A stretch of 64,000 bases of DNA, taken from the IMG/VR virus record IMGVR_UViG_2541047873_000001; one strand, given 5' to 3'. The notes beneath the pieces are model-generated. The model was not told where the DNA came from, ran no database searches, and saw nothing but the letters and a program-made list of their open reading frames with translations. Shown here one piece after another: positions 25,063 through 44,819 of the stretch (position 1 is its first letter; every line of letters starts with the position of its first letter). Both the position numbers and the translations under genes were made by a program. The DNA is from a virus (Duplodnaviria; Heunggongvirae; Uroviricota; Caudoviricetes).

Positions 25063-25073
25063 ACGGTCATAAA

Positions 25074-25153: not shown

Positions 25154-25172
25154 TTCAAGAAAGGGAACAAAC

Positions 25173-26415: not shown

Positions 26416-26532
26416 TTGATTATGTAGTTAACTTAACATAGAATTTTTCGTGCTGGTGGGGAGCTTCCCATGTCGCTTGCGGGTTTGATAGTCACTTCAT
26501 TGTCTTTCCCCACCAGCATCAAACAATTTTAA

Positions 26533-26546
26533 GTGTTAGAAAGTAA
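26533..26546. promoter_or_regulatory. Operator-like half-site (GTGTTAGAAAGT)
   Basis: Motif copy 120 bp downstream of the palindromic pair. Confidence 0.4.
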
Positions 26547-27726
26547 ATTTTAAGGTAAGGGAAAGCTCCGGCACCGTGCAAATACATGCCCGGCAGGTTT
26601 AGTGCGTAAAGTGGTTTCAGCGAGAGCATTTTACGGAGTAAACGACAGTGACTTGAGCCACGGAAGGTCTTTTTATGGTGTTCATTGATGATGATCTGGC
26701 AGTGAGTATGTTAAGTGGGCCAGGCTGCATCGGGTCATCATCAGTGCACATCCTCAACGTTAAGGAGGCGCAGAGTTGGGTTTTCCTCTTATTTTGCTGA
26801 CTCTGAGTCTCCTTAACGTTGCGGTAATGCACCTATGCGGATGTGGCCTTGCATTGTGTCTTGAAAGAATGGGGTAAGGCCGGGGATATTCCCAGGGGGA
26901 GGCACCCCCGCTGCAACGAACAGCCATAGACGGCAGTCGAGTGATGAAAACGTGAAAAGACTTTAAACCTCGTTACGGCTGGCGTGGCAAACGCGACAAC
27001 CGGGATAGGACGGTGACGGGCGGAGAGAGAGCCGCTTCAAGATAAAAGCCGACTATGGATTCCTTTCTGCGGGCCTTTGAAAGTGAATCTTGCTCAGGCA
27101 GTCGGCTTTTATGTTGATACGTAGCGATAACCGCGACAGGCGCGGCGGTAAGTATGGCGGGGTTATTCCTTCCCCGTTGAGGACACCGAGTTGCCAGGTT
27201 GACCATACGCCTAAGTGGCAATACCGCGAGTGGGATATTTGCCCACCTTCGGGTGGGTGTTTTTTCAGTGTTTTCGTCATGGTTAGCGACTTTGCGGCGG
27301 TTTAGAACCCGACCATTAAAGTAAATGCAAACGATGATCTGATGATGGTAGCGGCCTAAGAAGCCTGACGCCACGGGGTATGAGTCGTCCCCCGTCAAAA
27401 AATCGACCGCAGAGTGTCCCCGTCTGTGTATTAGGGAACGGGGAGGCATAACAGGCAAGGGCGCTGGTGTGATTAACCAGATGAATGAGAAGGGTCAGGT
27501 CTTTCTGGTCAGCGCCCTTACCTGTTACGTCCCTCCCGCGTAACAGCCATTGGTTAATGGCTTTCTGGGATAATGTCTTGTAACGGGTATATCCCGTCAT
27601 GCTGAAGGCGCTAATCACGCTGGAAGCCAGGGTTATGCATCCCCTGTTACCGAATTGCAGCCAGGGCGCGGTGCGCCGAAAAGCATACGGAGGTGGAAGC
27701 CCTCGCCGGAGACGTACCCGGCAAGT

Positions 27727-27803
27727 GATGGTGTAGCTCAGTAGGATAGAGCAGCAGCCTTCTAAGCTGTCGGTCGGTGGTTCGAATCCACCCACCATCG
27801 CCA
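27727..27803 (+). tRNA. tRNA-Arg (anticodon UCU)
   Basis: Hand-folded cloverleaf: acceptor gatggtg/caccatc, D arm gctc/gagc, anticodon loop cuUCUaa, T loop ggtgg-ttcgaat-ccacc, encoded CCA. Confidence 0.8.
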
Positions 27804-27808
27804 ATTTA

Positions 27809-27895
27809 GGGGAGTTAGTCCGTAGGGGTAGCGGGGTAGACTGTAAATCTACTGTCATTGCGACTCGGATGGTTCGACTCCATCACTCCCCACCA
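27809..27895 (+). tRNA. tRNA-Tyr (anticodon GUA), long variable arm
   Basis: Acceptor ggggagt/actcccc, anticodon arm gtaga-cuGUAaa-tctac, long variable arm, T arm gatgg-ttcgact-ccatc, CCA; resembles E. coli tRNA-Tyr. Confidence 0.7.
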
Positions 27896-27899
27896 AATT

Positions 27900-27975
27900 G
27901 CCGGTTTAGCTCAGTTGGTAGAGCGCCTGCCTTGTAAGCAGGATGTCAGCGGTTCGAGTCCGTTAACCGGCACCA
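27900..27975 (+). tRNA. tRNA-Thr (anticodon UGU)
   Basis: Acceptor gccggtt/aaccggc, D loop agctcagttggtagagc, anticodon arm cctgc-cuUGUaa-gcagg, T loop ttcgagt, CCA. Confidence 0.85.
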
Positions 27976-27983
27976 ACACAACA

Positions 27984-28056
27984 GGTAAGGGTATTTTGCG
28001 ACGTCGGAGATCGCCGAGCTTGGCAGAGGGTTCGAATCCCTACGAAGTACCCTTAC
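27984..28056 (+). other. tRNA-like element or pseudo-tRNA (T arm plus 10-bp terminal stem; no anticodon arm, no CCA)
   Basis: ggtaagggta...tacccttacc terminal helix encloses a gggttcgaatccc T-arm-like hairpin; too short for a complete tRNA. Confidence 0.25.
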
Positions 28057-28163
28057 CGTTGTGATGAATGCACAGGCTGATGTGCCGCAACTACAGTAGT
28101 GCGCGCTTTGCGGGGCTTGCTACAACCCTGTGTCGGAGTTCAGCACCGACCATCACAATCACT

Positions 28164-28250
28164 GGAGAGTAGGGAGCATGGTGCTCAAGCGGTCTTGAAA
28201 ACCGTCCCATTGCGCAAGCGATGATGGTTCGATTCCATTACTCTCCGCCA
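28164..28250 (+). tRNA. tRNA-Ser (anticodon UGA), type II
   Basis: Acceptor ggagagt/actctcc, anticodon arm gcggt-cuUGAaa-accgt as in E. coli tRNA-Ser(UGA), long variable arm, T loop ttcgatt, CCA. Confidence 0.7.
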
Positions 28251-28679
28251 GCGCAACGTTAAGAGTATTTGGCTAATTAAGCGAATGCCGGAAGCAGAAC
28301 CGGATCACCAAATGCGTACAGGCGTCATCGCCGCCCAGTCAGCCAAATGCTCTTACCATTGCGGTGAATGCGGCTAAGCGCACGCGGAACAGTTAAAACA
28401 GTAAAGGTGGTCTTTTTACTGGCGTAACGAGAATCCATAAGTGATCCGGCGTTAATTGTTAACTGGTTAACGTCACCGGGAGGCACCCGGCACCGCAACC
28501 TAACAGCAATGGCGTTTTGTCTTAAAAGGTGGCTGCAAGTGATGGATTTTTGGGCGTTTGCCGATAAAAACCCGGAGTGGACATTATTGTTTCTGCTGGT
28601 GGTTGCATACGGGGTAGAGCAAGCGGCAAAAGCCTTACGCGGTTCTGGCAAAAAGCGTAAGCGTAATTAACAGTAATCT

Positions 28680-28755
28680 GGCCCTTTAGCTCAGTGGTTA
28701 GAGCGGGCGACTCATAATCGCACGGTCACCGGTTCAAGTCCGGTAGGGGCCACCA
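28680..28755 (+). tRNA. tRNA with CAU anticodon, most like tRNA-Ile2 (AUA-decoding); elongator Met not excluded
   Basis: Near-complete resemblance to E. coli ileX-type tRNA as I recall it (GGCCCUUUAGCUCAGUGGUUAGAGC...CUCAUAAUCGC...GGUUCAAGUCC...GGGGCCACCA). Confidence 0.8.
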
Positions 28756-29207
28756 CATTTGGTTGTAACACGGCGTATGGCACATGCGTCGTTAGCGGTC
28801 TGGTGTAGCTGTTAGGTACCTTTTACTAACACTGCATGGGCACACCAGGTAGCCGGAATGTGCAAGCCCCGTTCATAGCGTCGGACTGCGGATTCACCAT
28901 CCTGGCGATTCGGTGTGACAGCCGGAAGAGCACGGCGTACAACAGGAAAAGGCGTTTAATTAGCGTGAGCGCCGTTTCCGTTGTGGTAATTGCGGCTATG
29001 CGCTCGTGACGAAGCCATTTTCATTCACTACGTTCTGATAAGTGTCGTCGCCGGGCGTGGCTAACCTGGCAGGTGGAGGCACCACCGCCACAACTCCTTT
29101 CAATTCATCATATAGCCGCTCAGGCTGTAACCCTTAATTAATACGAAGTTACGACGTCACTACCGGTTCAGCCGGGGGATAGTCGCGCGTGTAAAAAAGG
29201 AGACGTT

Positions 29208-29783
29208 ATGTTAACGGCGAACGATAACGCGTATTTAGAAGATGATCTCGTTTTGAGTGACTTTATAGGGCGACGAGAATGCTGGACGCAAAAGCGCGAG
29301 GAGCTTTATGCAGCGTTAGTTCGTAAAGGCGTCAACATCGAAACCGCACAGAACGGTGATATGACAGTGGTAAGTGTTGGACTGCACGGCGTAAGTGTGT
29401 CAGCAATCAATCATGAGCCGTACATTGCGTTATCCGAGTCGATGGTAAGGTTAGTTAAGTTCCTGAAGTACACAGAAGCGAATAACGTGCTCATCGCCAA
29501 AAAGAACATCCCGTTCTCATCGGCCTTTTACTGGATGATGAAGGGGCTTGATGCCCGGCGAACATCATGGCCTAAAGGGAGCTATATATCGATGCTCCGT
29601 GGCAGTGTTGGTAGCAAAGAAAAGCTCGTCGAATTCCTGCCGGAAGAGGCATTCGATATTGTTGAAGGTTGTGATGTGATGGTTATGCCTCGCCTGGTAA
29701 TGATGAATGGGGATTTACAGGCGCAGACAGACTGGTTTGCAACTGGAGTTGATATTATCGCTACTGACTGGGAGGTTTTTTGA
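29208..29783 (+). CDS. Hypothetical protein with C-terminal DUF2829-like module
   Basis: 191 aa; AAGGAG RBS; C-terminus FYWMMKGLDARRTSW...DIIATDWEVF. Confidence 0.45.
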   Translation: MLTANDNAYLEDDLVLSDFIGRRECWTQKREELYAALVRKGVNIETAQNGDMTVVSVGLHGVSVSAINHEPYIALSESMVRLVKFLKYTEANNVLIAKKNIPFSSAFYWMMKGLDARRTSWPKGSYISMLRGSVGSKEKLVEFLPEEAFDIVEGCDVMVMPRLVMMNGDLQAQTDWFATGVDIIATDWEVF

Positions 29784-30163
29784 TGTACGAGGCTACTAAA
29801 TTACGCACTGAGGATGCGATGCACATTGGTTGGGACATCATCACCTGCAAGATAACATCATGCAAGGCTACACGCACAGACGCCGGACACAAGAGCACAA
29901 TATCAGGTTATGTCGTGATGTCAGTCAGGAGTGTGCGCATACGCTTCAGATGGAAAGCCAGCCAGGTTACATCATCAATGCCGCTTACCGTCGAGCAGGA
30001 TTATTTATGCTTACCCGAAATAGACGGAGCGTTGCTGGTGGGCAATAGTGGTCGAAAAGCCGATTTTGAAGCCAGTCTGAAGATGGCGCAGGCGGTGATC
30101 AACAAACATAAAGGGAAGTGGGAGGCAAAAGTTAAGCATGTTGTTCGTTTATCCCGCTGGTAG
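29780..30163 (+). CDS. Hypothetical protein
   Basis: 127 aa, start overlaps the upstream stop. Confidence 0.35.
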   Translation: MMYEATKLRTEDAMHIGWDIITCKITSCKATRTDAGHKSTISGYVVMSVRSVRIRFRWKASQVTSSMPLTVEQDYLCLPEIDGALLVGNSGRKADFEASLKMAQAVINKHKGKWEAKVKHVVRLSRW

Positions 30164-30194
30164 TGTTAGCAAATTGATATTAATTTTCTAATAC
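30163..30194. promoter_or_regulatory. Bipartite operator upstream of the lpa-like/pac operon
   Basis: gtgttagcaaattgatattaattttctaata inverted half-sites. Confidence 0.5.
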
Positions 30195-30270
30195 ATCATG
30201 TTTTTGACAGTCTTCTCAGTATTAACAAGCTGATTATCATCCCCTCGGTCTTTTTCTATCCGGGGGATAA

Positions 30271-30663
30271 ATGGAGCAAATCAGTAGCGCCGAAATAGCG
30301 GATATCATGATCAGGGCTAACTGCTATCTGACGGTCACCGAAATCACCAGCCGTGCAAAAGCACAATATCCTCACCTTCATGTGTCGCGCGTAAACGTAA
30401 ATAACATCATACGTTTTTTTGTTCGTTCCAGTCGTGCCATTTGCGAAATAGACGACCGCGTATACCCCCGGAAATATTGGTTACATGGCCTGAATGGATA
30501 CCAGTTCAAGGTGCGCGGGCGCACTCCTGAATTCGGTCGGCTGTTGGTGAAAAACACCAACCGAAAGATAGAAGCTCAATTACGAAAGGAGCAGCGTCAG
30601 TTGGTGGCGATGACTAACCAGCTATGGAACGCCGCTGTGAAAAAACGTGAGGCTTCCCTATGA
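30271..30663 (+). CDS. Putative late-gene activator (Lpa-like, positional)
   Basis: 130-aa gene between an operator and pacA, as lpa sits in P1 (from memory); no motif support. Confidence 0.35.
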   Translation: MEQISSAEIADIMIRANCYLTVTEITSRAKAQYPHLHVSRVNVNNIIRFFVRSSRAICEIDDRVYPRKYWLHGLNGYQFKVRGRTPEFGRLLVKNTNRKIEAQLRKEQRQLVAMTNQLWNAAVKKREASL

Positions 30664-32024
30664 CGTTAATTAACTGGGAAGCGCATCGAGCTAAGTTCCT
30701 GGAGTTAAGAGAAGAAACCGGGATCACCATAAAAGAATATTGCGAGCAGCATGACCTCAGCTTTAACACCGCCAGAAAGCATCTCAATATGAAAAAAAAT
30801 GAGGTTAAGGCGAAAGCTAAGGCTGCCGGGAAAAGTACAAAACAGCGCGCAAAAAGCAGCGCCACCGGCTCAAAAAAAGAGCAAAAAAAGGCTGATAAAA
30901 GCACAGAATTTACAAAAACTGACAAATCGTTAGCTGGTGGACGGTTCCGCGCCATGCCGCAAAAACAAAATGCGGATCACAAAGAAAAGCCAAGTAATAA
31001 CAACAAGATACACAAGGATGTGAAGGGATCATTTTGTGATGAAATGGGAGAAATGATCCCTAAAAGCAGCGAAAAAGCCCAACGAAACAAGGGATCATTG
31101 CAAATGATCCCTGACTCATCAGCTCAAAGCGCCACTTTGCCTGCCACCAACGTCGCCCGTGAGATGATGAAGAACGGCGCGACTGAACATTTACGACTTG
31201 CGATACAGATGGCGCAGGAACGAGCAATTCAGTATCAGGCCATCGTTGACCAGGAAGCGGAGCGACTACAGGAAGAGATTGACGCCCTCGGCGATACACA
31301 GCCAGAGGGGATGCACCCAGGGCAGCGTCTTCTCGGCCTAATAAGCGATGCGGCCTACTACATGAATGACTTTATCAGTAGGTTGGCAGCCATCTACCAG
31401 ACCGAGCAGAAGCTACGCCAGGGGGATGAAAAACTTGCGCAGGGCGCGCGTCAGCAGGCATTCAGGGAGGCTGAGGCCAGAGAAAAACTGGCGATTGCCC
31501 GCCTGCAAGCCGAGCAGCGTGGCAAAGAGATTGAGTATCGCATTGGCGCTGACGCACGCGCCGCCAGGGTTATCGCCGCCGCTATACGTATGCGTGAGCG
31601 CGAGGAGCTGGACGATATAGGCGTAGCTGAATATATCGAGCGGCAGGGCGTCAGTGTCCCGGCTATCCTGGCGGCACGAGCGGCAAAAGCGATCTCACTT
31701 CTGGAGCCTCCGGTTTCTGACGTTAACGATGTTGATGATGAGCAACTGGATAAAGAGGCGAAGCAGTTTGCCGAGCAACAAGCTGGACTCCCACAATGGC
31801 TTGCACAACGCCGGGCTGAAGTAGCGAAAATCGTTGATAGGCTTGGGATGGGGGATTACGACCGGAACGGAGAACGTAAAGCCGGTGAATTTGAGGCCAA
31901 TGATGAAGACCTGAATATAGACCCTTCCGCCACGGCTGATATCTACGGTGATTATGACGCGGGGGATACCGGTTTTGATGCTGTAGATGACGAGATTGCG
32001 ATAGACCAGCCGGAGGATGACTAA
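30660..32024 (+). CDS. pacA: Pacase small subunit PacA
   Basis: 454 aa with N-terminal HTH-like region, lysine-rich linker, acidic C-terminus; directly upstream of the large terminase; contains the GATC-hexamer cluster. Confidence 0.6.
   Translation: MTLINWEAHRAKFLELREETGITIKEYCEQHDLSFNTARKHLNMKKNEVKAKAKAAGKSTKQRAKSSATGSKKEQKKADKSTEFTKTDKSLAGGRFRAMPQKQNADHKEKPSNNNKIHKDVKGSFCDEMGEMIPKSSEKAQRNKGSLQMIPDSSAQSATLPATNVAREMMKNGATEHLRLAIQMAQERAIQYQAIVDQEAERLQEEIDALGDTQPEGMHPGQRLLGLISDAAYYMNDFISRLAAIYQTEQKLRQGDEKLAQGARQQAFREAEAREKLAIARLQAEQRGKEIEYRIGADARAARVIAAAIRMREREELDDIGVAEYIERQGVSVPAILAARAAKAISLLEPPVSDVNDVDDEQLDKEAKQFAEQQAGLPQWLAQRRAEVAKIVDRLGMGDYDRNGERKAGEFEANDEDLNIDPSATADIYGDYDAGDTGFDAVDDEIAIDQPEDD
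30970..31112. other. Candidate pac site: cluster of five Dam (GATC) hexamers inside pacA
   Basis: GATC at 30975, 31027, 31055, 31093 and 31106, arranged as GGGATCATT / AATGATCCC inverted units; P1 pac is a hexamer cluster of this kind inside pacA. Confidence 0.5.
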
Positions 32025-33532
32025 TGGCTGGTGGTCGTAAGATTAAGTGCGTCACCAGTGATCCACGTTGGCGCGATATGGTTATCAGGTATCGATACAA
32101 CTTTACCCAGGCGGTTGTCGATATTTTTGGGATGTTACCCTCCCACCAGCAGCAGCAGATCATTCAGTCAGTGCAGGAGACGGGGAGCAGGACGACCGTT
32201 ACGTCCGGACACGGAACGGGTAAGTCGTCCCTTACCGCGATGTTGCTACTAATTTTCATGATCCTGTTCCCCGACGCCCGCGTCATTATTGTTGCGAACA
32301 AAATAGGCCAGGTAAAAACAGGCGTATTCAAATACGTGAAACAGTTTTGGGCGAATGCTGTTAAGCGTCACGGCTGGTTACAGACCTATTTTGTCCTGTC
32401 TGACACCATGTTTTATGAGCGTTCCCGTAAAGGGATATGGGAAGTGCTCTGTAAAGGTTATCGACTCGGTAACGAAGAGGCACTGGCGGGGGAGCACGCT
32501 GAGCATTTACTGCTAATCCTTGATGAAGCATCGGGCATATCCGATAAGGCGATTAACGTCATGACGGGGGCGTTAACGCAGAAAGATAACCGTATGCTCA
32601 TGCTTTCCCAGCCTACGCGTCCAAGCGGTTACTTTTATGAATCTCACCATTCAAGGGCAAAGGCAGAAGGCAATCCGGAAGGTGTCTGGACGGCAATAGT
32701 CCTTAACTCTGAAGAATCACCATTCGTTGAACCGAGCTTTATTCGTGAGAAATTGCTGGAGTACGGCGGCAGGGATTCGCTGGAGTACATGGTTAAGGTG
32801 CTGGGCCAGTTCCCGCGTGCAATTAACGGGTATTTGCTTGGTCGTGATGAGTGCGACCGCGCCGCACGGCGTAAAGTGTTGCTGGAGAAAGATTGGGGCT
32901 GGGTAGCGACCGCTGACGTCGGTAATGGTCGCGACAAATCGGTGCTCAATATATGCAAAGTATCCGGTTATCGTGAGAAACGACGCGTTGTGAACTTTAA
33001 GATACTGGAGATGCCAGGCACTATGGACCCGTTGGCTTTTGCCGACTTTATCTATAACGAATGCACTCCTGATAAATACCCGAACATCACCATTGCTGTG
33101 GATGCTGATGGCTTTGGTTCAGATACGTGTGCGCAGCTTGTCCGCCGTGGTGCTAATCCCGTTCGCATCCGTTGGGGTAAGCCTATGTTTGCGCTAAGAG
33201 ACAGAGAACGCTTTGTCAATCAGCGTGCTTACGCCAATATTATGGCAGGGGATGCCATTAAATCAGGGCGTATGCGTATCGATAGTGACCCCAAAACCGC
33301 AGATCAGGCATCAAAAATCCCGTATATGCTTAACGAAGAAGGGAAGGTAGCGATGATGCGCAAGGAGCACATGCGGCAGAAGTTAAACATCAAGTCGCCG
33401 GACAGATGGGATACCTACTGCTTCACTATGCTGGTGGATTACGTGCCTGCTAATGAAGACATTGGCGCAGAACTCGCAACATTCCGCGATCAGGTGTTGG
33501 CAGAAGTGGATATTCCTGATATTGACATTTAA
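32024..33532 (+). CDS. pacB: Terminase large subunit PacB
   Basis: Walker A GHGTGKS and Walker B LLILDEASG; 502 aa; start overlaps the pacA stop. Confidence 0.85.
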   Translation: MAGGRKIKCVTSDPRWRDMVIRYRYNFTQAVVDIFGMLPSHQQQQIIQSVQETGSRTTVTSGHGTGKSSLTAMLLLIFMILFPDARVIIVANKIGQVKTGVFKYVKQFWANAVKRHGWLQTYFVLSDTMFYERSRKGIWEVLCKGYRLGNEEALAGEHAEHLLLILDEASGISDKAINVMTGALTQKDNRMLMLSQPTRPSGYFYESHHSRAKAEGNPEGVWTAIVLNSEESPFVEPSFIREKLLEYGGRDSLEYMVKVLGQFPRAINGYLLGRDECDRAARRKVLLEKDWGWVATADVGNGRDKSVLNICKVSGYREKRRVVNFKILEMPGTMDPLAFADFIYNECTPDKYPNITIAVDADGFGSDTCAQLVRRGANPVRIRWGKPMFALRDRERFVNQRAYANIMAGDAIKSGRMRIDSDPKTADQASKIPYMLNEEGKVAMMRKEHMRQKLNIKSPDRWDTYCFTMLVDYVPANEDIGAELATFRDQVLAEVDIPDIDI

Positions 33533-33556
33533 AAGCCCCGGCGATTCGGGGCTTGT
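33532..33556 (-). terminator. Hairpin terminator for the leftward gene
   Basis: agccccggcgattcggggct hairpin; the T-run is on the minus strand. Confidence 0.45.
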
Positions 33557-33569
33557 GGGTGGCTTGCGA

Positions 33570-34607
33570 TTACCAGAGTTTTGCCGCGTACATCGTTTGT
33601 GTGAATGTGTACCCATAGCGTTCTTCAACGCTTTTACCGTATTTTTTCCTGGCTTCAGTAAGGCGGATGCCTGTCAGGTCATCGCCGGAGGCAATCATAA
33701 CTTCCAGTAGTTCCAGGTCCATTTTATCCAGCCTTGCCATTGCATCTTTAGCCTCTTGAATTTTCCGGCTAACGATCTGGTGTATGGCTGGATCGGCTTC
33801 GGCCAGCATTTTATCTGATTTGTTTTTTAAACTCTGATTGCGGATATCAATGTTTCTCAGGATATATGACTTCACGACATAGCTTGGCTGCTGCTTTTCC
33901 AGATCACGAACCCGATAAAGGTCAAATTCGCCGAGAAGTCCGCACGGAAGCGGTTTAATGCCAGTGTAAATGGTAAGGGTGCGGCGCTCACCAACGTTGT
34001 TAACAACGGGAATCTCTGTGTTTGCTTTTTTTGCAAAGATCAGCGCACCGTGCGTACCCACTCTGAAGCGTGAAAGTCCATTGTTGCCCTCGATATTGGT
34101 GGTAATCACCACATCGGTATAACCTTCTTTTCTTGCGCGGTATACCTCGCCCTCACGTTCAGCGGCGAAGAATCTGCGTTCTTCTTCAAGCGCACCGACA
34201 ACCTGTGAAAATATCCTGTTTTTCATGCTTTTCTTTATAGTTTTATCGTATTTTTTCAACAGGTCTTCGCGCGTAAATGTTCTCGTTGTGGTTGCGCTTT
34301 GCATAACGATATGCGTACTCTGATTAGTATCCTCAACAATGAATGGGATCGGTAAATAAACCGACTCAACAATGTTTGAGGCTTTGTCATCATCCTTGCG
34401 ACACAGATCAACAAAGGCTTTCCATTCGGCTACGCATTTTTCAGCTTCTTCTAATACAGCCGGATCATGTGTTAATGCAACATGGCGAAATTCCTCGCCA
34501 ACATAACTGGTATCATGGAAAACAGAGTTTGCGACCACCAGCTCTTTCCACCGTTCAGCGGTTTGCAGGAACCGTTTGTACTCATTCTCGATCGACTTCT
34601 TACTCAT
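33570..34607 (-). CDS. Candidate C1-type immunity repressor (positional inference only)
   Basis: 345 aa (ATG at 34607, MSKKSIENEY; the ORF-track N-terminal extension crosses operator sites). Divergent from the recombinase gene, with operator copies in its 5' region; sits between pacB and the lox-like site where c1 lies in P1. Confidence 0.35.
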   Translation of the reverse strand: MSKKSIENEYKRFLQTAERWKELVVANSVFHDTSYVGEEFRHVALTHDPAVLEEAEKCVAEWKAFVDLCRKDDDKASNIVESVYLPIPFIVEDTNQSTHIVMQSATTTRTFTREDLLKKYDKTIKKSMKNRIFSQVVGALEEERRFFAAEREGEVYRARKEGYTDVVITTNIEGNNGLSRFRVGTHGALIFAKKANTEIPVVNNVGERRTLTIYTGIKPLPCGLLGEFDLYRVRDLEKQQPSYVVKSYILRNIDIRNQSLKNKSDKMLAEADPAIHQIVSRKIQEAKDAMARLDKMDLELLEVMIASGDDLTGIRLTEARKKYGKSVEERYGYTFTQTMYAAKLW

Positions 34608-34623
34608 TATTCCTACTCGATTT

Positions 34624-34637
34624 AGTTTTCTAACATA
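34624..34637. promoter_or_regulatory. Operator-like site (AGTTTTCTAACATA)
   Basis: Motif copy 17 bp upstream of the candidate repressor start. Confidence 0.5.
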
Positions 34638-34710
34638 AAAGTCCTGTGACAAATTTATGCCGAATAACAAGGTGAGTAAAGGATAAAACCGCTTTTTTTT
34701 GATTGTTCCT

Positions 34711-34722
34711 ATTAGAAAATGT
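34711..34722. promoter_or_regulatory. Weak operator-like half-site (ATTAGAAAATGT)
   Basis: One-mismatch variant of the motif in the repressor/recombinase intergenic region. Confidence 0.3.
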
Positions 34723-34802
34723 AACCAGGAGCGGCTACCGCATGGCTGACGGATTTGCGAAGTGATCTGGTCGGTGTTTTTTTGGGAAAAAGTCCCGATT
34801 TC

Positions 34803-34834
34803 TAACTTTAAATAATTGGCATTATTTAAAGTTA
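34803..34834. other. rox-type recombination site (14-bp inverted arms, 4-bp spacer)
   Basis: taactttaaataat-tggc-attatttaaagtta is the reverse complement of the rox sequence TAACTTTAAATAATGCCAATTATTTAAAGTTA as I recall it; 150 bp upstream of the Cre-like gene. Confidence 0.85.
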
Positions 34835-34986
34835 GGCTATAATCTCCAGTAAACAGGCAGTATTGACAAGGATGAAAAATCATGCCTCGAATCAAAGGCT
34901 TGAATTTTGAAAATTAACTTATAACTACCCTGTCAGTTTTCTATTTTTCACGTAGCGTTATCTGTATATAGAGGTTTAATAGTTTC

Positions 34987-36015
34987 ATGGGTGAACTAGT
35001 TATCTCCGGCGGTTCTGGTGGTTTTCTGCGCGATATTGGCACCGAATACCAGGAAGCTGCAAAAAACTTTATGCAGTTCATGAACGACCAGGGAGCTTAT
35101 GCCCCAAATACACTTCGTGATCTCCGTCTGGTGTTTCATTCCTGGGCGCGGTGGTGTAACTCGCGCCAGCGCCCCTGGTTCCCGATTACGCCGGAAATGG
35201 CCCGCGAGTATCTTCTCCAGTTGCATGAGGCCGATCTGGCTTCGACCACCATTGATAAGCACTATGCCATGCTTAACATGCTGCTTTCGCAATGTGGCCT
35301 CCCGCCGCTGTCGGACGATAAAAGTGTGTCTCTGGCCATGCGGCGCATCCGGCGCGAAGCGGCAACGGAAAAAGGCGAGCGAACAGGCCAGGCTATACCG
35401 TTGCGGTGGGATGATCTGAAATTGCTCGACGTGTTGCTGTCCCGTTCCGAGCGGCTGGTGGACCTGCGCAATCGGGCGTTTCTCTTCGTGGCATACAATA
35501 CCCTGATGCGTATGTCAGAAATCTCGCGCATCCGCGTCGGAGATCTGGACCAAACAGGTGACACTGTAACGCTGCATATTTCACACACGAAGACCATCAC
35601 GACCGCCGCAGGACTTGATAAGGTGCTTTCTCGTTACACTACCGCCGTACTGAACGACTGGCTGGAGGTGTCCGGACTTCGAGAACATCCGGACGCGGTG
35701 CTATTCCCGCCAATACACCGCAGTAATAAGGCCAGAATCACGACAACGCCCCTTACTGCACCTGCAATGGAGAAAATATTCAGCGATGCCTGGGGGTTGC
35801 TGAACAAACGAGATGCCACGCCGAACAAGGGAAGATACCGGACGTGGACAGGCCATAGTGCGCGTGTTGGTGCGGCAATTGATATGGCTGAGAAACAGGT
35901 GTCAATGGTCGAGATCATGCAGGAAGGCACATGGAAAAAGCCCGAAACACTTATGCGATATTTGCGCCGTAGCGGGGCATCCGTTGGTGCAAATAGTCGC
36001 CTGATGGATTCATAA
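34987..36015 (+). CDS. dre: Dre-type tyrosine recombinase (Cre homolog)
   Basis: 342 aa, colinear with P1 Cre from memory (HSWARWC, SVSLAMRRIRRE, AYNTLMRMSEISRIRVGD, WTGHSARVGAAIDMA); cognate rox site upstream. Confidence 0.9.
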   Translation: MGELVISGGSGGFLRDIGTEYQEAAKNFMQFMNDQGAYAPNTLRDLRLVFHSWARWCNSRQRPWFPITPEMAREYLLQLHEADLASTTIDKHYAMLNMLLSQCGLPPLSDDKSVSLAMRRIRREAATEKGERTGQAIPLRWDDLKLLDVLLSRSERLVDLRNRAFLFVAYNTLMRMSEISRIRVGDLDQTGDTVTLHISHTKTITTAAGLDKVLSRYTTAVLNDWLEVSGLREHPDAVLFPPIHRSNKARITTTPLTAPAMEKIFSDAWGLLNKRDATPNKGRYRTWTGHSARVGAAIDMAEKQVSMVEIMQEGTWKKPETLMRYLRRSGASVGANSRLMDS

Positions 36016-36016
36016 A

Positions 36017-36030
36017 TTAATTTTCTAACA
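36017..36030. promoter_or_regulatory. Operator-like site (AATTAATTTTCTAACA)
   Basis: Motif copy immediately after the recombinase stop. Confidence 0.45.
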
Positions 36031-36087
36031 ATCTTTTTAGACAGTGCATTTTAATGTAAAGTACCCTCGCCTATTGCGGAGGGTACT

Positions 36088-36432
36088 TTGCACAATCGTA
36101 TTACGGAATCAAAACGCTTCACTGTTGACGGTTACACCATAACCTTCACTGCGGGCGTTAAGCGCGACCAGGCGGTCGTGGTGTTCGGTGTTATGACCGG
36201 GCTTGATGCCGTTCCCGTGTTTAACCTCGAAAAAAACTGGCGAAATCTGGAGGAAGCTGAACGCTACGTCCGGAAAGTAACCGTCATTGCTGCTGAAAAA
36301 CTCCTGGCCCACTATCAGGAAAATTATCGCGCTATGACCGAGAAAATTAACCATGTTTTCACTCGCCCCACCAGCGGCTTCATTGCCCCTGATGCAAATG
36401 CCGGGCGCTATCCGGCAAGGGGGCGCAAATGA
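36088..36432 (+). CDS. Hypothetical protein
   Basis: 114 aa; TTG start with GGAGGG RBS embedded in a hairpin. Confidence 0.35.
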   Translation: MHNRITESKRFTVDGYTITFTAGVKRDQAVVVFGVMTGLDAVPVFNLEKNWRNLEEAERYVRKVTVIAAEKLLAHYQENYRAMTEKINHVFTRPTSGFIAPDANAGRYPARGRK

Positions 36433-36917
36433 AAACTTACTACCCATCCCTGAACTGCTATCCAACCACTAATCCTGAGCTGTCAGGGAAACTTCTGTCC
36501 CTCCTGGCTGATAGTCCTGATGAATGGCATAAGCCTGGTGATATCAACACACAGTTCCCTGAGTACGGGTGTATCCGCACCAGAAATGAGCTGAAGAACC
36601 TCATTGCTCACGGTTTTGTCCGTCACCGTAGCGGGAAAGGCTATCAGTTGGCCATCCCACAAGGAGAGGCAAGAGAACTCTTTGGCTATCGAGAAAGCCA
36701 GACGCAAGCGCGGGTGATCGCAGAAATTATCCGTAATGGCAGCGTCTATGCCCGCAAATTCTGGCTGTCTGGCGGTGGTGATGCATCACAGTTCTTGCGT
36801 GCTGTGCGATCGCTGGAGGAACAAGGTGTTATCGAGAATACCTGCGTCTCCGTTCCGACCGCTCCGCATATCAAACGCCGGATTTATACATTTACCCGGA
36901 GAGCTAAAAAGCAATGA
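36429..36917 (+). CDS. Hypothetical protein
   Basis: 162 aa, overlapping start/stop with neighbours. Confidence 0.4.
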   Translation: MKTYYPSLNCYPTTNPELSGKLLSLLADSPDEWHKPGDINTQFPEYGCIRTRNELKNLIAHGFVRHRSGKGYQLAIPQGEARELFGYRESQTQARVIAEIIRNGSVYARKFWLSGGGDASQFLRAVRSLEEQGVIENTCVSVPTAPHIKRRIYTFTRRAKKQ

Positions 36918-37408
36918 TTAACGTGAAAGTGAAACGCCTTCATCCGGCGGCAAAACTCCCCGTTTACGCCACCGCCGGATCGGCGGCGATGGATTTTGTT
37001 GCTGTTGAAATAACGCCGGGTATCGATAGCAACGGCGCTATTTCCTCAAGCTGGTGGGTGCATACCGGCCTCGCTATGGCGATCCCTCCTGGCTGGTGTC
37101 TGAAACTTTATCCTCGTTCCGGATTGGGCTGCAAAAAGCATACGCGCCTGGCTAACTGCGTAGGAATTATCGACTCCGATTATCGCGGTGAAATCAAAGC
37201 AAAACTGATTACAGATCCCGGTGGTGAAGGCGTTTGCCTCAAGCCAGGAATGGCGGTCATGCAAGGCATTTTTGAGCGTGTTGAACCGGTATCGCTGGTA
37301 GAAGTTGATGAACTCGATGAAACAGAGCGAGGTGCTGGTGGCTTTGGTAGCACATCGGAAGACCGCATTGAAATCAAGCGTACACCGCTTCAGTACGCAA
37401 AGTTTTAA
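36914..37408 (+). CDS. dut: dUTP diphosphatase
   Basis: Conserved dUTPase motifs ATAGSAAMDF, GIIDSDYRGEI and RGAGGFGSTS. Confidence 0.9.
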   Translation: MINVKVKRLHPAAKLPVYATAGSAAMDFVAVEITPGIDSNGAISSSWWVHTGLAMAIPPGWCLKLYPRSGLGCKKHTRLANCVGIIDSDYRGEIKAKLITDPGGEGVCLKPGMAVMQGIFERVEPVSLVEVDELDETERGAGGFGSTSEDRIEIKRTPLQYAKF

Positions 37409-37422
37409 GTAGAGGAAAGGCT

Positions 37423-38073
37423 ATGAATAACATGCCAACGAAAGAGCTTTTTAAGTTCCTTCCCAAATACAAAGCTCACAAAAACGTTAGTGCATCGAAA
37501 ATCAAAAATGTTGTTATTTTCGGCGTAACTGATGCCCCACTTTGGGGCTGCATCGAACTCGTTGAACCAAAAGGGGCAACAGTTTGTGTTGACGCAATGT
37601 TTTTACAAAAACACCGACCAAAAACTGGCGGGTATCTGATCGTTTATGAAAACGGTTATCTGTTCTATGCCCCGGAGAAACCATTTGAGGAATGCTATGG
37701 CCTGGTTAACGACGCCTCCAAAAATGGAACCACGGTCATCATTACGGATGACAACGGCGTGATGATTAATCTTACTGGGAGCGTAACTATTTCTGCTGGT
37801 GGCATCACCACCCAGCAAGAAGAAATCGACCTTGAAGCAGCCGACTTCTCTGATGCGCTAATGTGGTTGAAGGAAGGCAAGAAAGTTGCCCGACGCGAGT
37901 GGAAAGGCGAAAAGCAATTCTGCTGGTTAGTTCTCGCTGGAAGCGTCAATTTACACGGCATTCACGTTCCTTATGGTGACCATTTTGTATTGAAAGATGC
38001 ACAAAATATGGACAGCGTTTGGTTGCCGTCTGTGGATGATTTACTGGCCTGTGACTGGTTTGTTGTGGAGTGA
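37423..38073 (+). CDS. Two-domain protein with C-terminal DUF2829-like (Tad2-like) module
   Basis: C-terminus FSDALMWLKEGKKVARREWKG...DDLLACDWFVVE. Confidence 0.5.
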   Translation: MNNMPTKELFKFLPKYKAHKNVSASKIKNVVIFGVTDAPLWGCIELVEPKGATVCVDAMFLQKHRPKTGGYLIVYENGYLFYAPEKPFEECYGLVNDASKNGTTVIITDDNGVMINLTGSVTISAGGITTQQEEIDLEAADFSDALMWLKEGKKVARREWKGEKQFCWLVLAGSVNLHGIHVPYGDHFVLKDAQNMDSVWLPSVDDLLACDWFVVE

Positions 38074-38079
38074 TTTAAC

Positions 38080-38877
38080 GTGGAAAATACCAAGAACATT
38101 CAATATCGCCTGCGTAACGGCCTGCTGGTGGATGTAAACGATGATATGTCCCTGCCCTTTGCCACCATTGAGCGAACCATCCTTACATACCTGGGTTTAG
38201 ACGAAGAGTTAGATAGTGAGAATGGCATTGCTATCTGGCGTGACGGAAAAACGGGAGTCAGACGTTTTATTACGGCAAGAGGCATTCAGTGCACACAGGA
38301 AGAATTGTTTGAACTGGCGCAGTCTTATGGATGCATCGCGTTAGATCCCCTGCATGACCCAGCCATAGCGCAACAACTCATTCGAGAGCTGTCGCTTTCG
38401 GTCACGCCAATAATCTTCCGCCAGGGAACCTTAACCGGCACATGGCGTGTAGAACGCATCTCTAAATATCAGCCATATAATATCCATTTGAACGGCACTA
38501 TTACTGGTGTGGATCAACCAGTAGCAGGTGAAAACAAAGACCTGGAACTTGCAGTAATGATGGCTGCTTGTCGCGTGCTTGGCCTGGGCAAGCAGATGTT
38601 TATCCATTTCCCAAACGGCGCGGAAGGCGAAGTAGAGCTGATTTCCTGCGACTTTTCCTTAACCTGGATGCTTGATGAATTCCTGGACAAAACAGTATTC
38701 CGTGCTGAAGAACTGGATATGTATGTCACCTCAAGTATTCCTAATGACGTGAAAGTTGAGGCCATCGCTACAGCCAGGGCGAAATGCCGTGCGGCGATTG
38801 CAGAACAGGCCAAAGAAGAACAGTCCGATGAAGTCGCGGCAGATGTGGAAGCAGAGGATGCTGATGCTGACGCCTAA
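38080..38877 (+). CDS. Hypothetical protein with acidic C-terminal tail
   Basis: 265 aa; GTG start; terminator downstream. Confidence 0.4.
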   Translation: MENTKNIQYRLRNGLLVDVNDDMSLPFATIERTILTYLGLDEELDSENGIAIWRDGKTGVRRFITARGIQCTQEELFELAQSYGCIALDPLHDPAIAQQLIRELSLSVTPIIFRQGTLTGTWRVERISKYQPYNIHLNGTITGVDQPVAGENKDLELAVMMAACRVLGLGKQMFIHFPNGAEGEVELISCDFSLTWMLDEFLDKTVFRAEELDMYVTSSIPNDVKVEAIATARAKCRAAIAEQAKEEQSDEVAADVEAEDADADA

Positions 38878-38928
38878 AAGCAAGAAATTAGCTGGCTGAC
38901 AGCAGAAAAAATCATTGAGTGATAGTAG

Positions 38929-38958
38929 GAAGCCCGCTTGGTTGAGCGGGCTTCTTTT
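38929..38958 (+). terminator. Rho-independent terminator
   Basis: gaagcccgcttggttgagcgggcttc hairpin plus a T run. Confidence 0.55.
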
Positions 38959-39338
38959 CAAATATTGGAACCATATAGTTCACGTAGTTTTTCCGCTACT
39001 GAAGATACGGGGATTTCACCAGTTGCAGCCCCCACCGCAAGTTCCACCAGCACGGGAGAATCATATACCTGTATACCGTTACGGCGTAGAAATAGCAGCG
39101 CACTGTTTAGCGCGGTACGCTTATTGGCATCATTGAATATATGCCCTCTCGCTGTAGCCACCAGGTAGGTGGCGGAGACTTCGAAAAGGTCGGTGATCTC
39201 TTCGTAGGCAACTCTGGCCTGAACTCTCCCGATAATGGCCTCTGCCCTACCCGGATCTGACATTCCCGGCAGGCCGCCGTAGCGGTTTATATTCGCATCA
39301 TGAAGCGCAATAAGTTCTTCCGGTGATATATGCCTCAT
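38958..39338 (-). CDS. doc: Doc toxin (Fic/Doc family)
   Basis: 126 aa, near-identical to P1 Doc as remembered ([17 protein letters not shown]...[15 protein letters not shown]). Confidence 0.9.
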
Positions 39339-39559
39339 TATCGGTTAACCAGTTCCTTGTTGGTGGAGTCCAGGGTGTCAAACAGGGATGCAAATTCAGC
39401 ATCCAGCGCCGCTTTTTTGTAGGCTTCGAAAGTAGCCTTGCTGACAATTACTGCTGGCTCACGGCCTCTGCGGGTGATTTCAACCTCTTCCCCTGCTTCA
39501 ACATTATTGAGCACTTCGCTAAGGTTGCCGCGTGCGGTACGGAAGTTAATGGATTGCAT
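39338..39559 (-). CDS. phd: Phd antitoxin
   Basis: [39 protein letters not shown]; ATG at 39559 (the ORF-track start is an upstream GTG); stop overlaps the doc start. Confidence 0.9.
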
Positions 39560-39565
39560 AAACAC

Positions 39566-39592
39566 CTCGTGTACTCGTTATGTGTACGCAAT
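39566..39592. promoter_or_regulatory. Putative Phd/Doc operator (repeated GTGTAC half-sites)
   Basis: cgtgtactcgttatgtgtacgca directly upstream of phd. Confidence 0.4.
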
Positions 39593-39667
39593 TATAGGTT
39601 TTAATGATGCTGAATACCACTTCTTGGTGCCTTAAATCCTCGAGATGCAGTCTTGCAATTGCTGGGA

Positions 39668-40090
39668 TTAAGCAGAATAAGTGGTTGGAATTCTGAGCAG
39701 TAATCCAATCTTGGCTATGTGCTCATATGGCAGCTCTCCGGTTTTACCATCATGTATCGAGGCTATCAGATTCAATTCATGCGCCGCTTTACGAATTTCA
39801 GTTTCTGATGGAACAAGGCGAAAACCGATGGGTAACATTTTGATATAGAAAGGTAATAGTTCGTACTTCACCCGTAACTGTGCTGCCGCATCTTTCAAAT
39901 CATGGATGATTTCTTGTTTTAAGTCAGAGCGGGGATTCGATAGCTTTGCTTGGTTAGACAATAACAGATGCGATATTTCCCCCAACTGTTCCTTGAATGA
40001 AATGTAAGACTCAACCCCCTTGATGATGAGTCGACCTAGGACAAAAACGCTTACTCCAGTGACAACAGTGACAAAAGCAGACGAACTCAT
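39668..40090 (-). CDS. Small membrane-anchored protein of unknown function
   Basis: 140 aa, N-terminal TM helix, somewhat AT-rich; inserted between phd-doc and humD. Confidence 0.4.
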   Translation of the reverse strand: MSSSAFVTVVTGVSVFVLGRLIIKGVESYISFKEQLGEISHLLLSNQAKLSNPRSDLKQEIIHDLKDAAAQLRVKYELLPFYIKMLPIGFRLVPSETEIRKAAHELNLIASIHDGKTGELPYEHIAKIGLLLRIPTTYSA

Positions 40091-40224
40091 TCGCGTACCT
40101 AAAAAGAGAATTATAACCTCATCTTATCTTCAAGTGAGTAACCGCGTCTAATGGGAGGAATCATTTAAATGGCCAGGGCGATATAGGTCCAGTCATGCCT
40201 CTCTATGGTTTCTCTGAAAACAAA

Positions 40225-40614
40225 TCATATAGCAGGACTATCATCAAATTCACCGCCCCTGGCGTCATTGATAATGTGGGTGATCACACCAAAAACAGCA
40301 TTACTGCCCGTGTATCCATCGTCATCCACTGGTAACGCCTCTTTCTTCCCGGTGCTTAAATCCTCCAGGTGCTGGCGCGGATACTTCCTGTATCTCTTTA
40401 TGCGATATTCACCCTCCATAGCGCATATAAGCAGTGAACCATCAACCGGAGTAAGTGAGGAATCAACCACCAGCAAAGCACCTTGCAATATTCCCTCACG
40501 GTGATGGCTGTCTGCCGCCCGCATGAAGTAGGTCGCAGAAGGATGTCTGATTAGTTGCTGATCAAGAGAAATTCGGCTTTCAACATAATCCGCCGCAGGA
40601 GAAGGGAAGCCCAT
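40225..40614 (-). CDS. humD: HumD (UmuD homolog, S24 peptidase-like)
   Basis: 129 aa as in P1 HumD; UmuD-type C-terminal core; LexA box in its promoter. Confidence 0.75.
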   Translation of the reverse strand: MGFPSPAADYVESRISLDQQLIRHPSATYFMRAADSHHREGILQGALLVVDSSLTPVDGSLLICAMEGEYRIKRYRKYPRQHLEDLSTGKKEALPVDDDGYTGSNAVFGVITHIINDARGGEFDDSPAI

Positions 40615-40633
40615 AGCGTTTTACCTCAATAAT

Positions 40634-40653
40634 ACTGTTTATTCATACAGTAT
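40634..40653. promoter_or_regulatory. LexA (SOS) box
   Basis: TACTGTTTATTCATACAGTA fits CTGT-N8-ACAG, 20 bp upstream of the humD start. Confidence 0.65.
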
Positions 40654-40737
40654 ACATTGAAAAGGCATAGTTTGTGAAAGCGGGGTTTGTAGGCGCGCCA
40701 CGCTGGGGGCTAATCACATTTCTCCCCCAGCTTGCCG

Positions 40738-40989
40738 TTATTTTTTTGGTGCATCCTCGTTCTGATACACCGGATCGCTCCCTTTTGGCAACTGGAGGCT
40801 TAACTGCCGGTAGTGCCGTAGCCGTTCCATGAAATAGGCGCGCAGGTTTTCCGGTTGCTCACGGGCCACCTGCTCTGCAATCACAGGTATATTCAGCCGT
40901 TCTTTGTAAGCAACGCCGCTGGCGGCAAGGTCTACGTTCACCTTGTCTCGCTCTTCCTGGCTTTTAGCTGCTATATTTCGATCTGACAC
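40738..40989 (-). CDS. Hypothetical protein
   Basis: 83 aa, upstream of humD on the same strand. Confidence 0.4.
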
Positions 40990-41021
40990 AAGAAACCTCC
41001 AGGAGTTAGTGGATCAGGCAC

Positions 41022-41372
41022 ATGCACAATAACGTTCTCAATGTTAGCCGTTCAATTCAGACAATCAGGGACTGCACCAGTGTGGTGGCATCAATCCCAT
41101 TGCGAAACAGCATAGACGAACTGCAAATTCGTGTATTGAATCCGAATCAGGCTAATAAGCAATTGCGCTTTATTTTGACGCTGAAAAGTGAAACAGAGGG
41201 GATAAAGCACAGCGTAAAAGTGTTTTCTGAGGCCATTCTGCTTAATGGGAAGCTCCGGCATCTGATAAGGCCAGAACGTCAATATCCTGACGTCCTGGCG
41301 CGAGAAAAAGACCTTCTTTCTGAAGTTCAGGATAGGGTGATCGATTTCGTCAAATGCTATCCCCTGCATTGA
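41022..41372 (+). CDS. Hypothetical protein
   Basis: 116 aa; lone rightward ORF with a competing antisense ORF. Confidence 0.3.
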   Translation: MHNNVLNVSRSIQTIRDCTSVVASIPLRNSIDELQIRVLNPNQANKQLRFILTLKSETEGIKHSVKVFSEAILLNGKLRHLIRPERQYPDVLAREKDLLSEVQDRVIDFVKCYPLH

Positions 41373-41624
41373 GGGCAGATGTTCCCTTCCGCAAAGTAGG
41401 GAAAACTGCTATCAAGTTCATCACACCATCTGCGATGGTCGTAGCACCAAAACGCCTCCCACGGTGCACGGAAATACTTCATCCATCAGGACACGCGATC
41501 AGGTATATCTGCTGGTGGCAGTTCTTCTGGCAATAATTTGCCTGATAATTCCCTTTCCGCCCGCGACAGCATTTTTTTGAGGCTCGCGTTCTCTTTTTCA
41601 AGCTCATCTACGCGCACCTGTAAT

Positions 41625-42077
41625 TCAGCTTTCGTTGGCATGGTCCGCCTCATGCTTTTCAGCCACCAGCGGCAATAAAGCCCTGGCCATCTTATGAACC
41701 AACAGAGCATCGATAATGCCAAGCGTATGCCCCGGCTTAATGTTTAATGCCGCCTCAAGGTGACACCTTTCCAGGTCACTTTTCTCGGCTTGTTTATGAT
41801 GATCTGGCGTAATAACGTCGCCCAAAACACGGCTAATTCTTTCTCGTAATTGCTGGGTGCCAGCACACTTGATCGCTGTATCGTGGAGACGGTTAACCAG
41901 TTCGCGATAAACATGCGGCTTAATTCGGATACGTTCACCGGTGACGCCCTTTCCTGGTGCTGGCACCGAACTATCCGGAATATCCGGATAGTTGCCAGCC
42001 AGTCTGCGCAAAACAGCCTTAACACCCTCAATACGGTCATCATCGCAATTTTCCAGCGTATCTATGCGGTCGTGCAT
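41625..42077 (-). CDS. Hypothetical protein sharing a domain with the C-terminus of the DUF4406 protein
   Basis: HVYRELVNRLHDTAIKCAGTQQLRERISRVL parallels HIYRELVNALRDIAAVYHGTEQLRERLAHTI in 50097..50708. Confidence 0.4.
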   Translation of the reverse strand: MHDRIDTLENCDDDRIEGVKAVLRRLAGNYPDIPDSSVPAPGKGVTGERIRIKPHVYRELVNRLHDTAIKCAGTQQLRERISRVLGDVITPDHHKQAEKSDLERCHLEAALNIKPGHTLGIIDALLVHKMARALLPLVAEKHEADHANES

Positions 42078-42131
42078 GATGATTGCGTTATCAATATCAG
42101 GATTGCCGGTCCACTCATTACCGCGATTGGA

Positions 42132-42707
42132 TTAGGCAGCCTGGTTGCCGCGTACTGGTTGATTCTCGGCTTTACCCTGTCTGTCGTCGCTGCATGAATG
42201 CCCTTCCAGCCAGACCAGTGCTTGTCGCATGAAATACGCAATATGCTTGCCGTGGTAATCGTCTTCATCGATGTGAAAAGCGATACTGCGGATATATTCA
42301 ATTGCGTTTTCAATGGCCTCCGGCGTTACCGGTGCTGACATATTTTGATTTTGGAGTGCCAAGACGCGGCTGGCATCCTCTACGCCTTTAACTGCATCTG
42401 CGCAGTAGTTATAGCGATTGCATTCCACTAACTTCTGCTTGAGATTTTCAATTGCTTGTGCGACATCAGCCTGCAATTCCGGAACTGGCGGAGTGGCATA
42501 TAACGGCACCCACTTTGGTGCTTTATCCCCGACCGAACGCTGATACCAGTCACCCGGTTTGTATTCATAAAACTCACCAACAGGCTCTGCTTCCAGCGAT
42601 GCCAGCGCAATTTCATAAGCACGGCGCTCAATATTGTCTCGCACGTCCAGACTGCCTATGCGCTCTTTGATTTCTTTAATCAGTTCTTTGTCGGTTAAAG
42701 TGGTCAT
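42132..42707 (-). CDS. Hypothetical protein
   Basis: 191 aa within the long leftward operon. Confidence 0.4.
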   Translation of the reverse strand: MTTLTDKELIKEIKERIGSLDVRDNIERRAYEIALASLEAEPVGEFYEYKPGDWYQRSVGDKAPKWVPLYATPPVPELQADVAQAIENLKQKLVECNRYNYCADAVKGVEDASRVLALQNQNMSAPVTPEAIENAIEYIRSIAFHIDEDDYHGKHIAYFMRQALVWLEGHSCSDDRQGKAENQPVRGNQAA

Positions 42708-42717
42708 AAATTATGCC

Positions 42718-43251
42718 TCAGTTGTATCCGATTGGATTAACCGCAACAATAACGCCATCCGCGAACAAATCTTTAATGAGGTGTTCGCTCGGCTCGCCTT
42801 TTTCGTACTCTTCAATAAGGTAAGTGTCTCCATCCTCATTGATATAAACTGGAAGAATGGAACCGTTGATGAAGTAGGTTCCGTTGTTATCGAGGATTTT
42901 TGCCTCGGCGATTTGTTTTTTGGTAAAAAGATCTTCTTTTTTCAAAGTTGCCATATCTGTTTCCTTATGTGGGTTAATTTTATTGTGTAGCTTCCTGAAT
43001 GGGGTCCACACTATATCGATATACAGTTCAACTAACGGTTCAAATACTTTCCCCATTAGAACAGTCACTAATATTGAGGCTATTGGTATCAGCAACACGA
43101 AAAACAGAATGATAAACAGCAATTCTATTGCTCTACTCTTTCGCGGATATTCTTTTCTGAATAAAGTGGGCATTTCCTCCCCATTAAATGCCTCAATGAT
43201 TTCTCCAGTGTTTTGCGCTGCACCTGAATTATCTTTAAATCCTTCTTTCAT
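42718..43251 (-). CDS. Membrane protein, AT-rich gene
   Basis: 177 aa with a central TM helix; an internal ATG at 42954 with RBS could give a separate 78-aa product. Confidence 0.35.
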   Translation of the reverse strand: MKEGFKDNSGAAQNTGEIIEAFNGEEMPTLFRKEYPRKSRAIELLFIILFFVLLIPIASILVTVLMGKVFEPLVELYIDIVWTPFRKLHNKINPHKETDMATLKKEDLFTKKQIAEAKILDNNGTYFINGSILPVYINEDGDTYLIEEYEKGEPSEHLIKDLFADGVIVAVNPIGYN

Positions 43252-44815: not shown

Positions 44816-44819
44816 TCCA

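Follow-up and report, generated by a model that had tools for sequence, protein, structure and literature searches.

The window, i.e. the whole 64-kb stretch of DNA analysed here, is a D6-like phage-plasmid of the P1 family, of a kind frequent in E. coli, that carries the known Dre/rox site-specific recombination module, and in this sense the finding is an ordinary one. The module very probably acts as the functional counterpart of the Cre/loxP system of phage P1. Both the module and the sub-lineage are already known and present in public databases under generic annotation, and nothing reported here changes knowledge of the system. The value is mainly one of annotation: the RefSeq label of the recombinase is generic and rox is unannotated on these plasmids. 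Once the module is recognised, the element can be typed as D6-like and its conventional map origin located. The possible promoter in rox, the rox variants, the junctions at rox, the candidate pac site and the candidate C1 operators described below are modest leads, not discoveries.

Identification of the recombinase

The recombinase and its putative ribosome-binding sequence were located as follows.

34987..36015, plus strand: dre allele, Cre-type tyrosine recombinase of 342 aa, assigned from Dre identity, PDB and Pfam searches and residue mapping
34970..34974, plus strand: Shine–Dalgarno-like AGAGG, 12 nt before the dre ATG, in a block conserved in D6

The preliminary description had called this protein Cre-like but not Cre, and the alignments agreed. 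The protein was identical to D6 Dre (AAV84949) at 322 of 342 residues (94 %), with equal length and no gaps, as for an orthologue, and was 41 % identical to P1 Cre over a full-length alignment. A search of all PDB chains returned Cre structures as the best matches (E=4e-72, residues 22–341) and no deposited structure of Dre; because of this full-length match to Cre crystal structures, the fold of the recombinase was taken as settled. Pfam domains PF00589 (Phage_integrase catalytic domain) and PF02899 (N-terminal SAM-like domain) were both found. The catalytic residues R175, E178, K202, H290, R293, W316 and Y325 are all kept, equivalent to R173, E176, K201, H289, R292, W315 and Y324 of Cre, and this R-E-K-H-R-W-Y set together with the two-domain architecture places the protein among the Cre-type recombinases. 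The published catalytic residues of Dre are Arg175, His290, Arg293, Trp316 and Tyr325 (PMC4777119), with numbering equal to that in the window protein.

Discrimination between loxP and rox was assigned by Karimova et al. to Cre residues K43, R259 and G263, whose counterparts in both Dre and Panto are R, P and K (PMC4957104). The window protein has R44, P259 and K263 and is of the rox type at these positions. Judged by its sequence, the window enzyme is a 94 %-identical Dre allele with an intact active site and the residues by which Dre distinguishes rox from loxP, and it would be expected to recombine rox with rox without accessory factors and not to recombine loxP. It was 100 % identical to RefSeq entry WP_021551777.1, which is labelled only 'tyrosine-type recombinase/integrase'.

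The window protein departs from Dre at 20 residues, namely 2, 5, 9, 16, 19, 26, 30, 58, 59, 62, 63, 68, 76, 81, 102, 217, 227, 270, 329 and 331, of which 15 lie within the first 102. None falls at a catalytic position, a specificity position (R44/P259/K263) or any other checked Cre-equivalent position. In nucleotide sequence, the gene is 87 % identical to D6 dre (135 differences in 1029 positions), and among the differing codons 106 are synonymous and 20 non-synonymous. This excess of synonymous differences shows purifying selection on dre, under which the gene has undergone a long divergence from its D6 counterpart.

The rox site and search for loxP

A single recombination site was found upstream of the recombinase gene.

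34803..34834, no strand assigned: rox site, TAACTTTAAATAAT-TGGC-ATTATTTAAAGTTA, 32 bp
34803..34816: left arm of rox
34817..34820: asymmetric core, TGGC
34821..34834: right arm of rox

Read from the sequence, positions 34803..34834 are TAACTTTAAATAATTGGCATTATTTAAAGTTA, a perfect 14-4-14 inverted repeat that in the window lineage extends by one further base per side to 15-4-15 (34802..34835). All 32 positions are identical to the rox annotation of D6 (AY753669, D6 immC region, 4909..4940, misc_recomb, 'crossover (rox) site for Dre recombinase'), with equal orientation relative to the recombinase gene. Wild-type rox has been published as 5'-TAACTTTAAATAATGCCAATTATTTAAAGTTA-3' (PMC4777119), and the window site is its reverse complement, as had been stated when the site was first described. 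The window site is a canonical rox. It has the 14-bp repeats of TAACTTTAAATAAT around a 4-bp asymmetric core (GCCA/TGGC) that characterize the Dre/rox system, and its placement is likewise typical, as a single site per genome in the order c1-rox-dre within a P1-family phage-plasmid. The distance from the end of rox to the dre ATG is 152 bp, close to the approximately 150 bp originally given.

Allowing a free 4-base core and up to three mismatches, the rox pattern had this one match in the 64-kb window, against 0.00 expected from dinucleotide shuffles. No further rox or pseudo-rox was found in the window, the sole other arm-like match (950..963, two mismatches) being without a partner. A second rox was also absent from the complete plasmid NZ_CP085065 and from D6, each of which has exactly one.

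The window was described at the outset as lacking loxP, and the loxP pattern (ATAACTTCGTATA-N8-TATACGAAGTTAT) indeed had 0 matches in it at up to three mismatches; on this measure the element does not belong to the Cre/loxP group. A loxP-arm match at up to two mismatches was found only at 29140..29152 on the minus strand (11/13). This half-site, previously pointed out as partnerless, is at chance level, with 0.94 such matches expected and at least one in 59 of 100 shuffles.

Genome context

The typing of the element as D6-like rather than P1- or P7-like was borne out by nucleotide comparison. In local blastn searches, the window was collinear with the complete D6 genome, which covered 53.8 of 64 kb (84 %) at a mean identity of 86.6 %, while P1 covered 8.6 kb (13.5 %). 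The alignment to D6 runs through the D6 map origin, which is rox itself, and the window is equally diverged from D6 to the left and right of rox. Among 50,697 phage records, only D6 had large coverage of window positions 22000..46000; P1, P7, SJ46 and RCS47 matched 7–13 % of this 24-kb query, mostly in the phd/doc/humD region. The genes to the left of rox are as follows.

30660..32024, plus strand: pacA terminase gene, RefSeq label 'DNA pacase A subunit'
32024..33532, plus strand: pacB terminase gene, next to pacA
33570..34607, minus strand: c1-like prophage repressor gene, 345 aa, 80 % identical to D6 C1; left neighbour of rox, as in D6 and P1

The order lpa, pacA, pacB, c1, rox, dre, two small ORFs, dut is that of D6. 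A departure of gene order from P1 had been proposed for the whole element, and this stood only in part. Locally, the order lpa-pacA-pacB-c1-site-recombinase equals the pac-c1-lox-cre order of P1; the departure consists of the missing coi, imcA/B and cra genes and of differing downstream genes.

P1-like phage-plasmids have been reported to decay into plain plasmids (PMC10879196), and the module might on that account be an inactive remnant, its host plasmid being in decay and no longer phage-like. We consider this extremely unlikely. The terminase, portal, head, tail, lytic replication and immunity regions are all retained and collinear with D6, the recombinase ORF is intact and of full length with the codon differences from D6 weighted towards synonymous ones as above, and the perfect palindrome is kept across dozens of elements. 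Multimer resolution would moreover be useful even to a plain plasmid.

Several other features of the window were recorded. Positions 39597..43747 are approximately 95 % identical to D6, whereas the near-identical NZ_CP085065 has a type I restriction-modification locus (hsdR/S/M) there beside phd/doc; the region is therefore taken as swapped accessory cargo. A ddrB-like ORF of 1013 aa with a ddrB-ParB domain occupies 6142..9183 on the plus strand; neither D6, whose ddrB is shorter, nor NZ_CP085065 has an equivalent of positions 7476..10210. Clustered at 27727..28755 are five tRNA genes (Arg-TCT, Tyr-GTA, Thr-TGT, Ser-TGA and Met-CAT), compared with three annotated (Ser, Thr and Asn) at the corresponding place in D6. 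Two C4 antisense-RNA immunity loci (Rfam RF01695) were found at 14285..14491 and 52104..52314, one with c4-a1b1 targets and the other with an isrK match, in agreement with the two icd/anti-repressor modules of D6.

Candidate pac site and putative C1 operators

Four exact copies of the decamer AGGGATCATT lie at 31024..31112 inside pacA, in alternating orientation and each with a Dam GATC, against 0.19 expected, and D6 pacA has GATC motifs at equal positions. This cluster is a candidate pac site approximately 3.7 kb from rox. The pac site of P1 is a GATC-hexamer site, to which the decamer cluster is alike in design but unlike in sequence, and a P1-type cluster of TGATCA/G hexamers is absent from the window pacA. 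In P1, pac and lox are separated by a comparable distance of roughly 4 kb.

The P1 C1 operator consensus ATTGCTCTAATAAATTT had 0 matches in the window at up to three mismatches. A different repeat, TTTTCTAACA, occurs in twelve exact copies against 0.20 expected, with the extended consensus AATTTAATTTTCTAACAYAT. The copies are at 12978, 14180, 25139, 26384/26404, 34626, 36021, 45858, 50906/50926, 51557 and 62676; two pairs form inverted repeats, one copy is in the c1 leader, one is right after the dre stop codon and one closely precedes a C4 antisense RNA locus. These repeats are likely the C1 operators of the window's immunity type.

Sequences flanking rox and dre

Three further features were identified around the site and the recombinase gene.

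34702..34802, no strand assigned: hypervariable segment of approximately 100 bp directly left of rox, unalignable among at least three c1/immunity types
34816..34843, plus strand: sigma-70 promoter-like element, TTGGCA-16 nt-TATAAT (11/12), reading toward dre
36055..36092, plus strand: hairpin with 14-nt arms and a 10-nt loop, 40 bp past the dre stop codon

The −35 hexamer of the promoter-like element (34816..34821) consists of the four core bases of rox plus one adjoining base from each arm, and the −10 hexamer, TATAAT (34838..34843), starts 3 bases past the right arm. A promoter scan of the region gave three promoter-like sites against 2.1 expected, and the one overlapping rox was the best at 11/12. 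The offset of TATAAT is equal in D6 and in 33 of 35 IMG/VR relatives, including a locus with a 69 %-identical enzyme, while the triplets flanking it vary (GGC, AGC, GTA, TCA or GGT before; CTC, CAT, TAT, AAT, ATT or GTA after). From its consensus match and this conservation, the element looks like a conserved dre promoter.

The segment at 34702..34802 could not be aligned among elements of the window type, of the D6 type and of a third type represented by L014, although the c1 leader further left and all sequence right of rox do align, and it may be an immunity-specific control region. The 20-mer at 34702 is not repeated. The hairpin past dre is a possible but weak terminator, and a terminator scan made no call there.

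Distribution in plasmids and genomes

The 1.6-kb region matched 144 PLSDB plasmids, from Escherichia (118), Salmonella (16), Shigella (9) and Enterobacter (1), with 116 of the 144 records typed as non-mobilizable. It was also found in 124 of 5,426 complete E. coli genomes (~2 %), a frequency that makes the Dre-like recombinase gene relevant where wild E. coli are the host for Dre/rox tools. That natural strains of E. coli harbour copies of Dre/rox was reported earlier by Karimova et al. in 2016 (PMC4957104). Among 125 matching E. coli records, 15 were at least 99 % identical to the 1.6-kb query and 82 fell in the 80–90 % band, which includes the D6-type copies; the window element falls in a separate sub-lineage of the D6-like group. 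The closest record, NZ_CP085065.1 (94,191 bp), was 99.9 % identical over the region and encodes a protein identical to that of the window, with no rox feature annotated. The element lives as a plasmid of approximately 90 kb.

The recombinase has the Pfam Phage_integrase domain and 3 of the 127 places in E. coli were chromosomal, as would suit a conventional phage integrase for which the palindrome is the attP core for chromosomal integration. Such a role is scarcely conceivable, as the other 124 places were on plasmids of ~90 kb and the element does not group with integrative ones. Moreover, the palindrome, with its perfectly matching arms and asymmetric core of 4 bp, is of the lox type and has the sequence of a site on which Dre alone was shown to act (PMC4777119, PMC4957104), and a scan of 185,579 species-representative genomes for exact rox arms found no genuine rox, the one match being a coincidental hairpin in a Clostridia MAG.

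The Clostridia match (OZ007016.1, L046 6381..6412) was rejected as rox; its core, TAAT, is symmetric, it lies within a longer AT-rich palindrome that separates convergent genes, no recombinase is encoded in its vicinity, and it looks like a terminator hairpin. In the same scan applied to IMG/VR, every matching contig also encodes the recombinase.

Variation of rox among relatives

A scan of IMG/VR with the window recombinase protein gave 36 loci, 35 of which have a full-length gene, and in all 35 a rox-type palindrome lies 151–153 bp upstream of the recombinase ATG. Site variants were found in a number of these. A change confined to the left (c1-side) arm, A9G, was present in 11 loci, including L035 and L036; L037 has it too, together with the core TGGA, a substitution at the first position of its right arm, and an 87 %-identical enzyme. 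The core is GGGG in L020 and TAGC in L039, whose enzyme is 69 % identical. In L041 and L042, with enzymes 55–56 % identical, the site is TAACTTTATATAAT-GTCA-GTTATATAAAGTTA. The full set of loci listed as rox variants comprises L014, L018, L021, L024, L030–L032, L035–L037, L020, L039, L041 and L042, with rox at ~2317 in each. These natural Dre alleles (94, 87, 69 and 55 %) and their cognate site variants form a small free dataset for engineers of Cre-type recombinases.

The variant sites bear on whether the 20 substitutions in the window enzyme have shifted or relaxed its specificity, such that the adjacent rox is not its preferred or not its sole substrate. Several lox-like sites are cross-reactive substrates of Dre, and sequence identity is no simple guide to specificity in the family (PMC10250229); activity of Cre-type enzymes is also modulated by neighbours of the specificity determinants and by yet-unknown determinants (PMC10250229). 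A shift is nevertheless very unlikely, given that the substitutions spare the catalytic, R44/P259/K263 and other checked positions and that purifying selection on dre is strong. In addition, all five loci with 99–100 % identical proteins (L007–L011) have canonical rox at the fixed 152-bp spacing. Canonical rox is retained here as the predicted substrate of the window enzyme.

Identity between relatives changes abruptly at the site. The L014 type is 71–87 % identical to D6 (L001) across c1 and 94–100 % from rox rightward, and L035 is 88–98 % identical to L014 left of rox, 74–86 % from rox through dre, and 94–98 % beyond. These jumps in two independent comparisons therefore indicate a mosaic junction at rox. 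A9G in the left arm is seen in L014-like loci with the third type of flank and in the 87 %-enzyme loci L035–L037, whose own left flanks differ, and is absent from window-type and D6-type loci and from the L014-type locus L019. Junctions at rox fit, but do not prove, a two-step history in which Dre occasionally cointegrates different D6-like elements and homologous recombination provides the second crossover. A broader proposal is that rox may carry the −35 of the dre promoter, with Dre autoregulating dre, and may also be a preferred swap junction for c1/recombinase modules between co-resident elements, the A9G, GGGG, TAGC and TGGA variants deciding which elements recombine. We regard this proposal as possible but doubtful.

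Proposed function and comparison with known systems

By extension from Cre/loxP and published work on Dre, two Dre monomers would bind each rox, giving four on the four 14-bp arms of two sites. Tyr325 would then cleave and exchange strands across a TGGC-centred crossover region via a Holliday intermediate, with accessory factors not needed; mutational data suggest that this region reaches into the first base of each rox arm (PMC4777119). As in P1, the module would circularise injected, terminally redundant DNA in which rox is present at both ends, and would resolve multimers of the plasmid-prophage to monomers for segregation by the partition system. Roles in cyclisation and multimer resolution are likely for Dre/rox in D6-like elements by this analogy, and the candidate pac site in pacA at 3.7 kb from rox was counted in support of the former. 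More speculatively, dre would be transcribed from the promoter with its −35 inside rox, so that bound Dre could limit its own synthesis.

The closest known system is Dre/rox of D6, described by Sauer & McDermott in 2004 (consulted as reported in PMC3553980 and PMC4777119) and present in records AY753669 and MF356679. The window shares with it the 32-bp site, its orientation and 152-bp distance to the ATG, the protein length, the catalytic and specificity residues, the neighbours pacA, pacB, c1, rox, dre, two small ORFs and dut, and the TATAAT right of rox. It differs in the 20 amino acid changes in Dre, a C1 that is 80 % identical, the unrelated ~100 bp left of rox and an inverted repeat that in D6 is one base shorter per side.

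Cre/loxP of P1 (NC_005856) is alike in enzyme family, in the seven active-site residues, in the genome position pac-c1-site-recombinase and in presumed roles. The P1 site is 13-8-13 whereas the window rox is 14-4-14, and Cre has K43/R259/G263 where the window enzyme has R/P/K. The P1 genes coi, imcA and imcB, which separate c1 from loxP, and cra, which separates loxP from cre, are all lacking in the window, and the annotated cre promoters of P1 are all downstream of lox, whereas the best promoter-like element of the window overlaps rox.

Panto/pox, Vika/vox, Nigri/nox, VCre and the YR series are likewise Cre-type recombinases that act independently of accessory factors on lox-like palindromes, and Panto also recombines rox (PMC4957104). 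Panto is reported to be only 52 % identical to Dre, whereas the window enzyme is 94 % identical, and the latter is therefore assigned to Dre rather than to Panto, Vika, Nigri, VCre or the YR series.
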